Shown here: piece after piece, positions 4,044 through 27,825 of the stretch
Layout: every line of letters starts with the position of its first letter
Position numbering within the stretch: position 1 is the stretch's first letter
IMG/VR virus record: IMGVR_UViG_3300045919_000631
Coordinates: 1-64,000 of that record
Origin: a virus
Length of the DNA: 64,000 nt
Reading direction: 5' to 3' (one strand)
Program-made: the position numbers and the translations under genes
Notes under the pieces: generated by a model
The model's database searches: none
What the model was told of the DNA's origin: nothing
What the model saw: only the letters and a program-made list of their open reading frames with translations

Positions 4044-4670
4044 TTACCAACCTTCTTCAATCACTGGCATATACACATTAGCATTATATCGGATTTCGTT
4101 TTGTGCTTCGAGTTTACTTTCTCGAGTAGCTCGAATAAAAAATCGAAAGCCTTTATGCGTAGTTGGCATTCCTCTATGAAAAGTGAGCCAATCAAAGAAT
4201 ATAGGTTTCGCTTCAGGCGCAATCATGCGATGAAAAACTTTTTCTTCGCATAATTTTTCCACTTCAGTGTCCCATTTCTTATAGATTTTCTCACCAACTG
4301 GAGGTATCTCCATCTCTGCTTCGCCTATTGCAAATTGCGTCAAAGAGCAATTACCCCACAGACACATGCAGTGCTGTGACCTATACTCTGGTGTCTCATA
4401 ATTTGGCTGTTTATCCTCGCGTGTGCGAGGCACGTCATCGTGATGCCAACCAGGAATACAAGGCCACATTCCAGGCATAAGCATATGAACACGCGAATCA
4501 ACAAGAATATCGTTCCAAGGAAGATAGTCTAGAAATCGTTTTGTGAGAACGCCACCGTTGGCTAAAGCAAATTCTCGAGTGGCACGATGGAGCATTGGCT
4601 CCGTTTTGATAGTGTGTTCATCAGCTTTTTCTAGCTGAGGCCCAAACGCTAAATAGCTTGTAATATTCAT
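4044..4670 (-). CDS. putative 2OG-Fe(II) dioxygenase-like protein
   Basis: PGWHHDDVPR (HxD) and distal FHRG, RFFIRA motifs. Confidence 0.6.
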   Translation of the reverse strand: MNITSYLAFGPQLEKADEHTIKTEPMLHRATREFALANGGVLTKRFLDYLPWNDILVDSRVHMLMPGMWPCIPGWHHDDVPRTREDKQPNYETPEYRSQHCMCLWGNCSLTQFAIGEAEMEIPPVGEKIYKKWDTEVEKLCEEKVFHRMIAPEAKPIFFDWLTFHRGMPTTHKGFRFFIRATRESKLEAQNEIRYNANVYMPVIEEGW

Positions 4671-16422: not shown

Positions 16423-16497
16423 TGGAAGACCGGGACGGAATTGAACCGACGAATAACAGGTTTGCAAGCTGCTGCCTAACCATTCGGCATCCGGTCT
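16423..16497 (-). tRNA. tRNA-Cys(GCA)
   Basis: ttGCAaa loop, U73, CCA. Confidence 0.9.
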
Positions 16498-17411: not shown

Positions 17412-17495
17412 TGGTGCCCAAGGTGGGACTCGAACCCACAAAACCGGAGATTTTAAGTCTCTAAACTGTGCCATTCGCTATAAGGTCACAAGGGC
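17412..17495 (-). tRNA. tRNA-Leu(TAA), enlarged D-region, short variable arm
   Basis: gaga-ctTAAaa-tctc, T-arm gtggg-ttcgagt-cccac, CCA. Confidence 0.8.
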
Positions 17496-17592: not shown

Positions 17593-17680
17593 TGGCGGAA
17601 AATGATCGCATCGAACAATTACGGTTTTTGCCGTACTACTGATTTCAAGTCAGTTTGAGGAGCCAACCTCAGCATCTTCC
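17593..17680 (-). tRNA. tRNA-Ser(TGA), possible 8/4 fold
   Basis: actga-ctTGAaa-tcagt, long variable arm, G73. Confidence 0.85.
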
Positions 17681-17766: not shown

Positions 17767-17856
17767 TGGCGGAGAGCAGGGGACATGATCCACAACCCAT
17801 TTAAGGATCTCATCGTTTAGCAAACGAGCCTAGTATGCCTATCTAGTTTACTCTCC
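17767..17856 (-). tRNA. tRNA-Ser(GCT)
   Basis: tcgt-ttGCTaa-acga, long variable arm, G73. Confidence 0.85.
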
Positions 17857-22382: not shown

Positions 22383-22460
22383 TGGTGGAGAATAGGGGCA
22401 TCAAACCCCTCTGTATCATGATTGCAAATCAAGCGTCCACATCAAGCAGACCCATTCCCC
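22383..22460 (-). tRNA. tRNA-Ala(TGC)
   Basis: ttTGCaa loop, G3:U70. Confidence 0.88.
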
Positions 22461-23464: not shown

Positions 23465-23872
23465 TGGTGTAGGCGGCCGGATTTGAACCGGCGTGTATGC
23501 TGCCTTGTCAACCAGTTTCTACAAGTTTAGATTTATAAAATTCATAACGAGCAGCATAAATCAAACTGCATCGCAATTACTCTAACATTCTAACTTTCTA
23601 CTAGAACTGCGGATAAGGTTAGCCAACTCCGCAGTGCCATCTCACTGTTACGATTTGGTAGATAGTGAGAATCTTTACCAACTCGTTCACCTTTAATTAG
23701 GCGAATGAGAGCTCTCCGGACGGGATGGTGACTAGGTCACGAACCTTCGCGAAGAAACTCTTAACTGAATTTACAATGTTGTTTATTGTTTGAAGCGATA
23801 TTAAAGAGCATTGCATCATTGCTCTACTTGCTACTGGACTTTCCGGCATCATATAGAATCCAGAACGCCCAC
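23465..23872 (-). ncRNA. ssrA: tmRNA
   Basis: 5' gtgggcgttctggattc, 3' gccggttcaaatccggccgcctacacca, G3:U70; internal tag frame 23780-23697 ending ELSFA*. Confidence 0.9.
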
Positions 23873-23891: not shown

Positions 23892-23907
23892 ATTATACTG
23901 AAGTTCC
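23892..23907 (-). promoter_or_regulatory. GGAAC-N5-TATAAT promoter for tmRNA
   Basis: ggaac-ttcag-tataat, ~20 nt before the tmRNA 5' end. Confidence 0.75.
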
Positions 23908-24330: not shown

Positions 24331-24408
24331 TGGCGTCCCTGAAGGGATTTTAACCCTTGTTGATGCATTGAGAATGCAGTTTCCTAAGACAGACTAGAAG
24401 ACAGGGAC
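24331..24408 (-). tRNA. tRNA-Glu(CTC)
   Basis: tgca-ttCTCaa-tgca, G73. Confidence 0.85.
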
Positions 24409-24749: not shown

Positions 24750-24765
24750 ATTATATCACTGTTCC
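24750..24765 (-). promoter_or_regulatory. GGAAC-N5-TATAAT promoter
   Basis: ggaac-agtga-tataat. Confidence 0.75.
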
Positions 24766-24782: not shown

Positions 24783-24857
24783 TGGTAGCCCCACCGGGAT
24801 TCGAACCCGGATAATCGCAGTGAAAGTGCGGTAAACTAACCGTTATTCTATGAGGCC
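24783..24857 (-). tRNA. tRNA-Glu(TTC)
   Basis: cgca-ctTTCac-tgcg. Confidence 0.92.
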
Positions 24858-24939
24858 GTAAATTGGTATCACGTTCAGGTGTTATTTTAACGCGATGGAA
24901 GTATCCTAACTGGTCCTGTTGCTACTGCAGTAGCGAGAT

Positions 24940-25014
24940 TGGAGGCAGGGACGGCGTTTAAATCCGTTGCTGAAGGTTATGAGCCTACTGAGTTATCACA
25001 TACTCTACCCTGCG
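24940..25014 (-). tRNA. tRNA-Met(CAT), initiator-like, divergent
   Basis: ctCATaa loop, C1 mismatch, cgcaggg 5' end, atypical T-loop. Confidence 0.72.
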
Positions 25015-25022
25015 TCAAAAAA

Positions 25023-25099
25023 TGGTACCAGGTGAGGAACTCGAATCCCCAACATCTTGAATGTAAATCAAGTGCTCTAACCAATTGAGCTAACCCGGC
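25023..25099 (-). tRNA. tRNA-Val(TAC)
   Basis: cttga-ttTACat-tcaag. Confidence 0.92.
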
Positions 25100-25104
25100 A
25101 TAAC

Positions 25105-25226
25105 AAAGTACTTTTTATTAGATCGGGGTTTAAAGCCGATTTGCCTTAACCATTAGGCTATCTTGGCATGGAGCCAGGAGTTGGATTTGAACCAACGTGT
25201 CTTTTAGACATTGCTGTGAGTACTTT
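25105..25226 (-). ncRNA. circularly permuted tRNA-like RNA (Y RNA/YrlA-like topology)
   Basis: order V-arm, T-arm, acceptor 3', loop, acceptor 5', D-arm, anticodon-like arm, closed by aaagtact/agtacttt. Confidence 0.75.
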
Positions 25227-25230
25227 TAAC

Positions 25231-25291
25231 TAAGCGCATTTATTTTCGAGATAATAGTTCGAATTTTATTTTGGATTGCTGTGTGCGCTTA
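25231..25291 (-). ncRNA. short CACAGCAA-motif hairpin RNA
   Basis: taagcgca/tgcgctta stem followed by cacagcaat, as in the neighbouring element. Confidence 0.55.
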
Positions 25292-25297
25292 AAGATG

Positions 25298-25381
25298 TTG
25301 TAAGTGTACTGCCATACTATACTATGCGAGACCCGGCTAAACGTAATCCAGCAGGAGACTTCGAACCTCCCCTTCTTACAA
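25298..25381 (-). ncRNA. second circularly permuted tRNA-like RNA
   Basis: ttgtaag/cttacaa closing stem, T-arm ggagg-ttcgaag-tctcc, closed acceptor hairpin, D-arm with GG. Confidence 0.68.
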
Positions 25382-25383
25382 AT

Positions 25384-25459
25384 TGGCACGTCCGGCCGGA
25401 GTTGAACCGACATAAGGTGGATTTGGAGTTCACTGCCCTACCACATGGACCACAGACGT
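25384..25459 (-). tRNA. tRNA-Trp(CCA)
   Basis: ctCCAaa loop, G73. Confidence 0.9.
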
Positions 25460-25665
25460 GTAAAATTTGTAGTCCATTTTTCATCATGTTACCATGGGAT
25501 GGACCGATCCGTTTCCACTCTTTAGTCTGGAAGCTCAGCGAGCTTAGGGCTCGGAACCTTATTAAGATTCTTACACTCTACTGCAACCACTCTTTTGCGC
25601 AGCATAATCTCCAGCGAACTTTGTGATCGTTGCCAAAGGTGTCTGCGCTTACATTGAGCAGAAAT

Positions 25666-25760
25666 TGGTGCTAGTTTTATCTGAATCTTGCCCTTGGGCC
25701 TAATAAGAACTGCAACTTAATCAGGATACGAGGCTTGCCAACATCAGACCTTTAACTAGC
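25666..25760 (-). ncRNA. CCA-ended non-cloverleaf RNA
   Basis: 7-bp gctagtt/aactagc plus ACCA, inner tctga/tcaga. Confidence 0.55.
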
Positions 25761-25769
25761 AAAGGAAAT

Positions 25770-25844
25770 TGGTGGTAGAAGAGGGGCTTGAACCCTCAAC
25801 CTTATCCTTATGACGGATTTGCGCTACCATTGCGCCATTCTACC
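25770..25844 (-). tRNA. tRNA with CAT anticodon (Ile2 or elongator Met)
   Basis: atcc-gtCATaa-ggat; acceptor resembles the phage tRNA-Ile(GAT). Confidence 0.85.
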
Positions 25845-25848
25845 GAAA

Positions 25849-25923
25849 TGGTGGGCCAAGAGGGACTTGAACCCCCAACGCCGAGATCTTCACTCTCGCG
25901 CTCTACATTGGAGCTATTGACCC
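25849..25923 (-). tRNA. tRNA-Phe(GAA)
   Basis: cgaga-gtGAAga-tctcg. Confidence 0.9.
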
Positions 25924-25967
25924 ATTTAAATTGAATGCCTAGCATTTCTGCTAGGACTTTTGTTTTC

Positions 25968-26063
25968 TTATTCGCTACAAGACTTGTTGTTGTAGTCTTC
26001 GTGAGTTATTACTCCAACTAAAGCAACAGCCAAATAGGCGATTATGATGGTTACAATTTGCAT
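25968..26063 (-). CDS. 31-aa membrane microprotein
   Basis: MQIVTIIIAYLAVALVGVITHEDYNNKSCSE with AAGGA upstream. Confidence 0.45.
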   Translation of the reverse strand: MQIVTIIIAYLAVALVGVITHEDYNNKSCSE

Positions 26064-26150
26064 TGTTTCCTTTGTCCTTAGAACTGATGCCCGTAGGTTA
26101 ACCAGTTGTTAAAATGGTGGGATTAATAGTAATCGACTTCTTAAAAGAAA

Positions 26151-26226
26151 TGGCCCCCACACGGGAAATCGAATCCCGATAAATGGATAGACAATCCATG
26201 GTACTAAGCCGTTGTACGATGTGGGG
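26151..26226 (-). tRNA. tRNA-Asp(GTC)
   Basis: atgga-ttGTCta-tccat, G73. Confidence 0.88.
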
Positions 26227-26233
26227 CTTTAAA

Positions 26234-26851
26234 TTACAGCCAGCTTGGTCCTTTTTGATCAACTGGAATTTTTAAAATCTTTCTTACTAACCATTTTACC
26301 CACCAATACGCGGTGAGCTTTAATGATTGAAATTTTAAGAGCGTATGATTACCAACAATAATTGAAGCACCATAACGCTTAACAACTCTTACATGGCCTG
26401 CTGTTTCGTGGCAAAGTTTAGTGACATCAACGATACTACCACCATAGGCTTGATCGCTCCAATTGTCAACTAAAATATCTGCTCCCATTCTGTTTCCAGA
26501 ACCTTTTACAACACCTCGTAAAATTGCGTGGCTTGCTCCTTTTACACTAAAAATTTGATTACCAAGACCATTTTGCGATTCACCGAATGAACCGTGTAGC
26601 ATTGTCGTGGCGTGATTATTAATATCAACCGAGCATTCAGCTCCTTGATTGACTACTAGACCGCTGAGACTTACGATACTAAAATCGCAAATCTTTAAAA
26701 TGCTTGCATATTGCACAGGGTGATCTGGCGTTAATACGGCATTGTCTCCTGGGTTATTTGCTGGTGTTGGATTAGAACTACCGGCGTTTGATTCCCAGAC
26801 ATTGTTGCTTACTGATAGGTAATTAACATCTACTTTGGTTGAACTGCTCAT
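26234..26851 (-). CDS. hypothetical beta-rich protein with C-terminal amphipathic helix
   Basis: true start MSSSTK behind TAAATA; the ORF-track extension overlaps tRNA-Tyr. Confidence 0.7.
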   Translation of the reverse strand: MSSSTKVDVNYLSVSNNVWESNAGSSNPTPANNPGDNAVLTPDHPVQYASILKICDFSIVSLSGLVVNQGAECSVDINNHATTMLHGSFGESQNGLGNQIFSVKGASHAILRGVVKGSGNRMGADILVDNWSDQAYGGSIVDVTKLCHETAGHVRVVKRYGASIIVGNHTLLKFQSLKLTAYWWVKWLVRKILKIPVDQKGPSWL

Positions 26852-26868
26852 GATGTTATTTATTAAAA

Positions 26869-26953
26869 TGGTGGGCATAGAAGGACTCGAACCTTCGGAG
26901 ACGTTAGTCAGCTGATTTACAGTCAGCCACAATTGCCGCTATGTGATACACCC
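26869..26953 (-). tRNA. tRNA-Tyr(GTA)
   Basis: gctga-ctGTAaa-tcagc, long variable arm. Confidence 0.93.
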
Positions 26954-27208
26954 GAAACTGCGCAGTCTCTCCTGCTGTCAAGCCTAGATCATCGCGCTCG
27001 GCTTTCAGGCTAAATTGGCCTGGCTTTTATTTAAAGACGATCCAGGGCTCGTCATAAAGAACAACTAACTTATTGACTCTTCGTCCTCACAAGCACGGAT
27101 TTACATCCTTCCTGGTTTTGGGGCCCGCAAAACATTTCCTATAATAAGAAATGGCGGCTATTTCATACGCTTCGAGGCGCGCTTTTGCCTATATCTAAAT
27201 TGAACTGT

Positions 27209-27243
27209 AAAAGAAAACCCTAAGCTTTTTGGGCTTAGGGTTA
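27209..27243 (-). terminator. conditional intrinsic terminator (attenuator B:C)
   Basis: aaccctaagc-ccaaaaa-gcttagggtt-ttctttt. Confidence 0.85.
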
Positions 27244-27269
27244 AAAGTAAAACTGTCTTTAACCCTAAG
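27234..27269 (-). promoter_or_regulatory. antiterminator hairpin (A:B)
   Basis: perfect 12-bp cttagggttaaa/tttaaccctaag, mutually exclusive with the terminator. Confidence 0.8.
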
Positions 27270-27354
27270 ATGTCCCTTTATCTGCCAAACCATGTGGTTC
27301 TAGCGCAACGTTCGAGTTGCTTGTAAACCAAATTGTTTGATACATTGAGAGCAT
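27265..27354 (-). CDS. attenuator leader peptide (29 aa)
   Basis: MLSMYQTIWFTSNSNVALEPHGLADKGTS*; its TAG lies in antiterminator strand A. Confidence 0.75.
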   Translation of the reverse strand: MLSMYQTIWFTSNSNVALEPHGLADKGTS

Positions 27355-27385
27355 TTGTGAAATTATTTAATCTAACTTCCGGTAT

Positions 27386-27401
27386 ATTATAGTATAGTTC
27401 C
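27386..27401 (-). promoter_or_regulatory. GGAAC-N5-TATAAT promoter at head of RNA array
   Basis: ggaac-tatac-tataat; an additional TAAATA at 27364-27369. Confidence 0.75.
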
Positions 27402-27447: not shown

Positions 27448-27825
27448 TCATTTACCAAAAAAGAAGAGATAATCATCGTGATTAAGCTCGAGTCTATCAT
27501 TTTTGTTCGCGCTAAGAACTTGGAGCCAACCATTATATGCTTGCACGAGCTCATGATGCTCCATAATCTTTTCTTGACATTCAGTTAGATCACGCTGAAG
27601 AGTTGCATCAATCCGAATCTGTGGACTAAAAGAGCCTTTTGTATTAGAGTAACTAGCAGCAACTGAATCATGGACTTCAATGCCACCGTCCCCAATACTC
27701 TTCATCACTTCTTTCTTTTTATTTTCCCACCATTCAAATTTAGCTTGATGAGTATCTCGTTTAGTCAGCGCCGCTGAAGCTAGTTCCGATGCTGTATATA
27801 AAAATTTCCATTCGTGACGTTTCAT
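27448..27825 (-). CDS. hypothetical helical protein
   Basis: 125-aa ORF. Confidence 0.7.
   Translation of the reverse strand: MKRHEWKFLYTASELASAALTKRDTHQAKFEWWENKKKEVMKSIGDGGIEVHDSVAASYSNTKGSFSPQIRIDATLQRDLTECQEKIMEHHELVQAYNGWLQVLSANKNDRLELNHDDYLFFFGK

Follow-up and report, generated by a model that had tools for sequence, protein, structure and literature searches.

The phage record analysed here (IMGVR_UViG_3300045919_000631, IMG/VR) has a length of 109,280 bp and is about 52% complete by estimate; its first 64 kb constitute the stretch of DNA referred to below as the window. Unless indicated otherwise, the features described are located on the minus strand, which carries a large array of tRNA genes between 12 and 31.6 kb. 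With the default settings of ARAGORN, 26 tRNA genes were found in the array, and with a relaxed threshold the number increased to 32, by which all 20 amino acids were covered; according to ARAGORN, the array includes five Arg tRNAs and one Cys tRNA. The six tRNA-like genes detected only at the relaxed threshold were Cys gca (16423-16497), a short Leu taa-like gene (17416-17484), Ser tga (17593-17680), Ser gct (17767-17856), Ala tgc (22383-22460) and Glu ctc (24331-24408). Two of these six were also recognised by Rfam, and the scores suggest that these genes have non-canonical features. Inside the array there is also a tmRNA (23465-23872; 87.6 bits with the Rfam model), which is preceded by its own GGAAC-N5-TATAAT promoter at 23907. 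A Shine-Dalgarno motif was absent from 85 of the 91 long genes of the phage.

The element under study is a leader of 172 nt, located downstream of an operon that encodes a 74-aa protein, an HNH protein and a 125-aa protein, the last of which (27448-27825) ends with a stop codon at 27448. The neighbouring proteins were compared with PHROGs and Pfam, and no match was obtained apart from that of the HNH endonuclease. In its AlphaFold model (pLDDT 89), the 125-aa protein forms a long antiparallel coiled-coil hairpin accompanied by a small sheet; among the Foldseek hits of this model, the one with the highest probability was the tRNA-binding arm of seryl-tRNA synthetase, at a level that was not significant. 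The 125-aa family is widespread in phages, and in at least six unrelated ones its members are located beside or inside tRNA arrays.

On the other side of the leader, a spacer of about 250 nt (26954-27206) extends from the terminator described below to tRNA-Tyr. The spacer contains a TAAATA motif (27033-27028), and our searches revealed in it neither a notable ORF nor a match to Rfam, and its fold was not significant (z = -1.2). A near-palindrome, GTTTTGCGGGCCCCAAAAC, is also present in the spacer, as is a terminator-like hairpin on the plus strand at 27005-27023. The first block of genes beyond the spacer (24783-26953) comprises tRNA-Tyr, a 206-aa ORF and the tRNAs for Asp, Phe, Met, Trp, Val and Glu(ttc). 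The 206-aa ORF, located between tRNA-Tyr and tRNA-Asp (26234-26854), matched no PHROGs or Pfam family. Its model was confident (pLDDT 92) and showed a small right-handed beta-helix followed by a C-terminal helix, weakly similar to family-3 pectate lyases and tailspikes; structure searches with the 125-aa and the 206-aa neighbours gave no significant match.

In the earlier note on this DNA, two promoters had been placed ahead of a 29-codon upstream ORF (uORF), and both motifs were found where they had been described. The distal one, GGAAC-N5-TATAAT (27386-27401), has a predicted transcript start near 27379 and is found about 170 nt ahead of the terminator. The motif GGAAC-N5-TAWAAT occurs in 10 copies in the window, in comparison to 0.14 expected, and all of them are found on the minus strand, between 10021 and 33470. 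Because of this excess and the common orientation, the copy at 27401 can be assigned to a genuine class of promoters. In most copies of this class the TATAAT hexamer is followed by an ATG at a distance of 7-8 nt, and one copy is located ahead of the tmRNA. Since the -10-like hexamer is only 7-8 nt away from the start codon, mRNAs of the GGAAC class would be leaderless or nearly so, which would fit the scarcity of Shine-Dalgarno sequences in this phage.

The proximal signal, TAAATA (27364-27369), starts at position -15, 9 nt before the ATG of the uORF, and resembles a gene-start or late-promoter signal: TAAATA starting between -18 and -10 was found at 27 of 104 long genes, as opposed to 1.6% of all ATGs. 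The next GGAAC promoter downstream is located at 24765 and another one at 23907, before the tmRNA, both in the same motif class as the copy at 27401. Since these two promoters lie downstream, at most the first block, with its seven tRNAs, depends on the leader, which agrees with the caveat on internal promoters already made in the earlier note. The TAAATA motif at 27033-27028 could, in addition, drive tRNA-Tyr independently.

The uORF (27265-27354) starts with an ATG at 27354 and ends with a TAG codon at 27267-27265, which is followed in frame by GGT TAA. When scored with a position weight matrix, its start context ranked at the median among real genes and at the 93rd percentile among all ATGs. 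We also calculated a log-likelihood ratio of codon usage, in which in-frame usage was compared with out-of-frame usage in the long genes of the phage. The value for the uORF was +10.5 bits. Among small ORFs with 25-40 codons (median -7.0) this is at the 97th percentile, and it falls within the range of windows of 29 codons from real genes (median 14.6). Both the start and the codon usage are thus gene-like, and we infer from these two lines of indirect evidence that the uORF is probably translated.

A recount of the codons gave the same numbers as in the earlier note: the peptide is composed of 18 distinct amino acids, with no Cys and no Arg, and uses 25 distinct sense codons, including three for Leu and four for Ser. 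The presence of 18 amino acids in 29 codons places the uORF in the top 0.9% of windows of real proteins and in the top 1.3% of small ORFs, a statistic that was picked post hoc, after the peptide was known. No run of regulatory codons for any sensed amino acid was found in the uORF. The match of its codons to the anticodons of the phage tRNAs (18 of 29 exact and 27 of 29 with wobble) was not significantly above that of the phage genes (51% and 85%, respectively), with a window P of about 0.08-0.16. A second leader, which could have served the Arg and Cys tRNAs, was also considered; the candidate, a 23-codon ORF rich in Arg and Cys at 18252-18181, was rejected, as it was accompanied by neither a switch nor significant structure.

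The end of the uORF and the region following it contain three complementary segments. Segment A (27257-27269), the 5' arm of a putative antiterminator, contains the TAG stop codon of the uORF. Segment B (27233-27246) is a shared arm, in which residues 27246-27234 can pair with A and residues 27242-27233 can pair with segment C (27225-27216). The pairing of B with C forms an intrinsic terminator, in which the hairpin is followed by UUCUUUU; the U-run is located at 27215-27207. The A:B helix had been described as a perfect one of 12 bp; we counted 12 Watson-Crick pairs and an additional G-U pair, that is 13 bp in all, with a predicted energy of -14.3 kcal/mol. Refolding of B:C returned the 10-bp stem claimed before, with a loop of 7 nt and an energy of -14.5 kcal/mol, and the positions of the U-run and of the TAG codon within A were as described. 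A:B and B:C are mutually exclusive and nearly isoenergetic.

To judge how often such an arrangement is encountered, we scanned for terminator-like hairpins (a perfect stem of at least 7 bp followed by a T-rich tail) with a perfect upstream complement of the 5' arm, called here an anti-arm, within 80 nt. Among the 60 terminator-like hairpins of the record, an anti-arm of 8 nt or more was found only in the leader, where it has 12 nt. In 277 hairpins from 650 kb of other loci, we obtained only a few chance 8-mers and one tandem-hairpin repeat of an unrelated phage; apart from these tandem duplicated hairpins, an anti-arm of at least 9 nt was absent from all the other 336 hairpins scanned. In the 109-kb record, three occurrences of the 9-mer CTTAGGGTT and its complement were counted, all within the same 54 nt, and the whole record holds only one switch element of this kind. 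In a 20-kb scan covering the tRNA array (11.8-31.7 kb), B:C with its U-run ranked first among the terminator-like sites. Upstream of A a fourth arm is absent, and the leader switch is therefore not a tandem-hairpin duplicate. The pairings, the 9-mer confined to this site and the rarity of anti-arms indicate that the three-segment architecture is real and far from chance. A search of the leader with the Rfam covariance models returned chance-level hits only (E > 2), with tRNA-Tyr as the only match to pass; the leader thus matched neither a T-box nor another curated cis-regulatory RNA of Rfam.

A feature that had been missed in the earlier note is that the body of the uORF itself folds into a strong hairpin sequestering the AUG. 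This long imperfect hairpin, P1 (27270-27354), extends from the AUG to the last sense codon and contains 29 bp, with the AUG region paired with the 3' end of the ORF. Its minimum free energy (MFE) is -23.9 kcal/mol (z = -4.0), only one of 200 shuffled sequences was as stable, and it accounts for 14.5% of the ensemble; in terms of stability it belongs to approximately the top 1.3% of coding windows of the phage. The 172-nt leader as a whole is strongly structured as well (z = -3.9). The whole of P1 is located inside the ORF, and no part of it pairs with A. Since it overlaps neither A nor B, the folding of P1 alone cannot flip the switch. The burial of the AUG in P1 could mean that the leader is a structured non-coding RNA or that it is poorly translated. 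As a conjecture, P1 might serve as a hairpin for pausing or timing, or it might limit initiation to a co-transcriptional window.

We then modelled how a ribosome on the uORF would affect the two pairings, by masking a footprint that reached 15 nt upstream and 14 nt downstream, counted from the first base of the codon in the A site. The MFE structure of the remaining RNA contained A:B for A-site codons 2-24, and with the A-site at codon 25, 11 of the 13 pairs were left. For A-site codons 26-30, that is through the stop codon, it contained B:C instead. In the folding of growing prefixes, A:B formed once B had been transcribed and persisted after C had been added. The stop codon and the end of the U-run are 57 nt apart, which is on a scale similar to that of the E. 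coli trp leader. No protector hairpin of the 1:2 type, which would sequester A, was found in the leader; the default state of an untranslated leader would therefore be read-through.

On this basis we propose that the leader could act as a ribosome-dependent, leader-peptide transcription attenuator placed before the first block of the tRNA array, from tRNA-Tyr onward. Transcripts initiated at the GGAAC-N5-TATAAT promoter (near 27379) or arriving from the upstream operon would carry the 29-codon ORF. If the leader was untranslated, or if a ribosome was held at A-site codons 2-25, the RNA would fold into the A:B antiterminator, since A and B are transcribed ahead of C and A:B equals B:C in stability, and the polymerase would continue into tRNA-Tyr and the following genes. 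A ribosome keeping pace with the polymerase up to the last codons or the UAG would cover A, leaving B free to pair with C, and transcription would stop at the U-run. As a net effect, transcription of the tRNA block from the promoter at 27401 would be low during fast translation, and it would increase with slow, stalled or absent ribosomes. The earlier note had made the same proposal, of termination with a ribosome at the stop codon and read-through with a stalled one, and in silico the footprint model indeed switches in this direction, between codons 25 and 26. We infer that polymerase and ribosome would be coupled at the leader and that the terminator would function in the host.

Several searches for relatives of the leader were carried out. 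Megablast and blastn against GenBank phages revealed no near relative, with only the tRNA-Tyr of unrelated phages matched, and single-protein scans of IMG/VR with the 125-aa, 206-aa and 304-aa proteins revealed no close relative. The 125-aa family comprised 70 homologues at 84 loci, among which the nearest belonged to GC-rich, non-syntenic phages with ordinary genes downstream; neither blastn nor tblastn detected a trace of the leader at these loci. In several distant phages the 125-aa gene is located within tRNA arrays and is followed directly by tRNAs, without a leader. Homologues of the 206-aa ORF were found at 14 loci, with about 50% identity, and represent the nearest phage group. These phages possess only 1-4 tRNAs, with the tmRNA directly before tRNA-Tyr, and among them we found no GGAAC-N5-TATAAT motif and no comparable switch. 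Comparative support for the leader was thus not obtained from these searches. In one of the related phages (L097, ~4165-4549), the apparent tmRNA directly before tRNA-Tyr was recognised by visual inspection of its 5' and 3' ends alone.

Pattern searches gave a similar picture. The exact A/B/C pattern had a sole match in IMG/VR, in an unrelated AT-rich phage with tandem hairpins, which was rejected, and a pattern derived from the peptide had no match in IMG/VR. A relaxed A/B/C pattern had 21 matches in bacterial genomes, which were rejected as unrelated repeats or terminators. In five bacterial contigs, two Flavobacterium MAGs among them, we noticed an order of arm, inverted arm and arm followed by a U-run, with TTAGGGTT-type arms; these loci may represent unrelated terminator/antiterminator leaders.

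Among the explanations that we considered, the leader-peptide attenuator was the best supported one, and its architecture and logic held in silico; we give it an even chance of being correct. The spacer of 250 nt between the terminator and the first tRNA counts against it, as do the TAAATA motif at 27033 and the promoters at 24765 and 23907, which could drive the tRNAs independently. Further points against it are that no comparative support was obtained, that the record holds a single element of this kind, that P1 buries the AUG, and that the leader has neither a run of regulatory codons nor a protector hairpin for A. The TAAATA motif and the spacer preceding tRNA-Tyr would also fit a stand-alone short unit with its own promoter and terminator, consisting of a gene for a 29-aa microprotein or a structured small RNA of about 170 nt; such a unit would have no regulatory connection with the tRNAs, which would be driven by their own promoters. 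The copy in segment A would then be left over from the duplication of a terminator arm, or be a part of a stabilising hairpin. The presence of a promoter, a gene-like start and a terminator within about 195 nt fits such a unit, and so do the strong overall structure of the leader and the same three-copy pattern in the tandem duplicated hairpins of the unrelated phage. However, the missing fourth arm upstream of A argues against a tandem-hairpin duplicate also in this case. Moreover, if A:B always formed first, the terminator would be rare, so that a perfect 10-bp C arm with its U-run and a perfect 12-nt A arm would have no joint reason for being retained; the position of the stop codon exactly inside A also speaks against such a unit. 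We regard a stand-alone unit as rather unlikely.

The alternative pairings are real and isoenergetic, and they could be set by a factor other than the ribosome, such as an RNA-binding protein of the phage or the host, an antisense RNA, or the speed or modification of the polymerase in the course of the infection programme, with the ORF being incidental. P1 is well defined and directly abuts A, and thus could be a protein-binding module; the adjacent 125-aa coiled-coil protein belongs to a family often found beside tRNA genes in other phages. On the other hand, tRNAs of other phages directly follow the 125-aa gene with no leader in between, no Rfam family was recognised, and P1, overlapping neither arm of the antiterminator, could not flip the switch by itself. 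Coding-like codons together with a gene-like start would also be expected in only a few percent of incidental frames. Taken together, control by such a factor seems quite improbable to us. The simplest explanation, an ordinary terminator of the upstream operon with the 74-aa, HNH and 125-aa genes, accompanied by a complementary copy and a small ORF that arose by chance, appears highly unlikely. Small ORFs are common, and between the stop codon of the 125-aa gene (27448) and the leader terminator there is no other terminator; yet a promoter of the phage class is situated between the operon and the terminator, a perfect 12-nt anti-arm occurs in none of the other 336 hairpins save the one tandem repeat, and the ORF resembles a gene in both its start context and its codon usage.

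If the leader does work as an attenuator, a further question is which signal it would read. The earlier note suggested that the uORF samples codons and opens the array in response to anticodon nucleases or starvation. In such a pan-codon gauge, slowing of the ribosome at any of the first ~25 codons, which represent 17 amino acids, would open the phage tRNA block on demand; the slowing could result from starvation, host shut-off or tRNA-cleaving defence nucleases. The diversity of the peptide, within the top ~1% by a post hoc statistic, speaks for this suggestion, and the match to the phage anticodons, not above that of the phage genes, the absence of Arg and Cys codons and the internal promoters downstream speak against it. 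The codon-sampling claim is compatible with the data but no more than suggestive, and we consider the pan-codon gauge as a tentative possibility that is more probably wrong than right.

Phage tRNA arrays are usually regarded as constitutively co-expressed cargo, and a full-text search of the literature brought up no report of attenuation acting on phage tRNA genes. If the attenuator is real, a gate read by the ribosome would mean that large phages monitor translation capacity and respond with their own tRNAs, which would have consequences for our view of codon compensation, of the escape from anticodon nucleases and of attenuation in hosts and phages without Shine-Dalgarno sequences. A pan-codon gauge, if true, would add a layer of regulation that has not been published for tRNA genes, and would connect to the idea of phage tRNAs as a means of countering tRNA-targeting defences (PMC10264068, PMC11555353). 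The element is small (~195 nt) and its logic is explicit, which makes it directly testable in a coupled transcription-translation system.

The best known leader-peptide attenuators are those of the amino-acid operons of E. coli, such as trpL, hisL, thrL and ilvL. In common with them, the phage leader has a promoter-proximal short ORF, a terminator overlapping an alternative antiterminator hairpin, a stop codon placed so that a terminating ribosome would mask the 5' arm of the antiterminator, and a length of about 170 nt; segments A, B and C correspond to segments 2, 3 and 4 of trp. In contrast to the trp-type leaders, its peptide is unusually diverse, with no run of one or few amino acids, and there is no segment-1 protector for A, so an untranslated leader should read through instead of being super-attenuated. 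The genes controlled would be phage tRNAs and a beta-helix ORF, not biosynthetic enzymes, and the phage genes here, unlike those of trp-type systems, lack Shine-Dalgarno sequences. The leader also resembles the generic terminator/antiterminator riboregulators predicted by PASIFIC (PMC5314783), in having two exclusive structures in the 5' leader, one of which is an intrinsic terminator; in comparison to these, it has no known aptamer or Rfam family, and the candidate flipping element is the ribosome at the stop codon.

In terms of physiology, the nearest published parallel to the proposed logic is the trn operon of Anabaena sp. PCC 7120, a 26-gene tRNA array induced by translational stress (PMC8421152) and controlled by the repressor TrcR (PMC10272220), in which an accessory tRNA array likewise remains low until translation is impaired. 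The Anabaena array is located on a bacterial megaplasmid and not in a phage, and it is controlled at the promoter, by direct repeats bound by the RHH repressor TrcR, with no attenuation; the main text of the NAR paper on this operon contains no words beginning with attenuat-, leader or terminator. A different kind of parallel is offered by attenuators that sense translation inhibitors by ribosome stalling, such as the msrD leader (PMC10314930) and yxjB with tylosin (PMC6851288). In these, as in the antibiotic-responsive leaders identified by Term-seq, general translation status is sensed through a ribosome stalled on a short ORF, and stalling favours the antiterminator, switching on genes that relieve the translation problem. 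Leaders of the msrD/yxjB type depend on specific arrest peptides and on ribosomes with a bound drug, and control resistance genes, whereas the phage leader has no known arrest motif and its output would be tRNAs. In its proposed function, the phage leader would be nearer to these stalling-sensing leaders than to those of the trp type.
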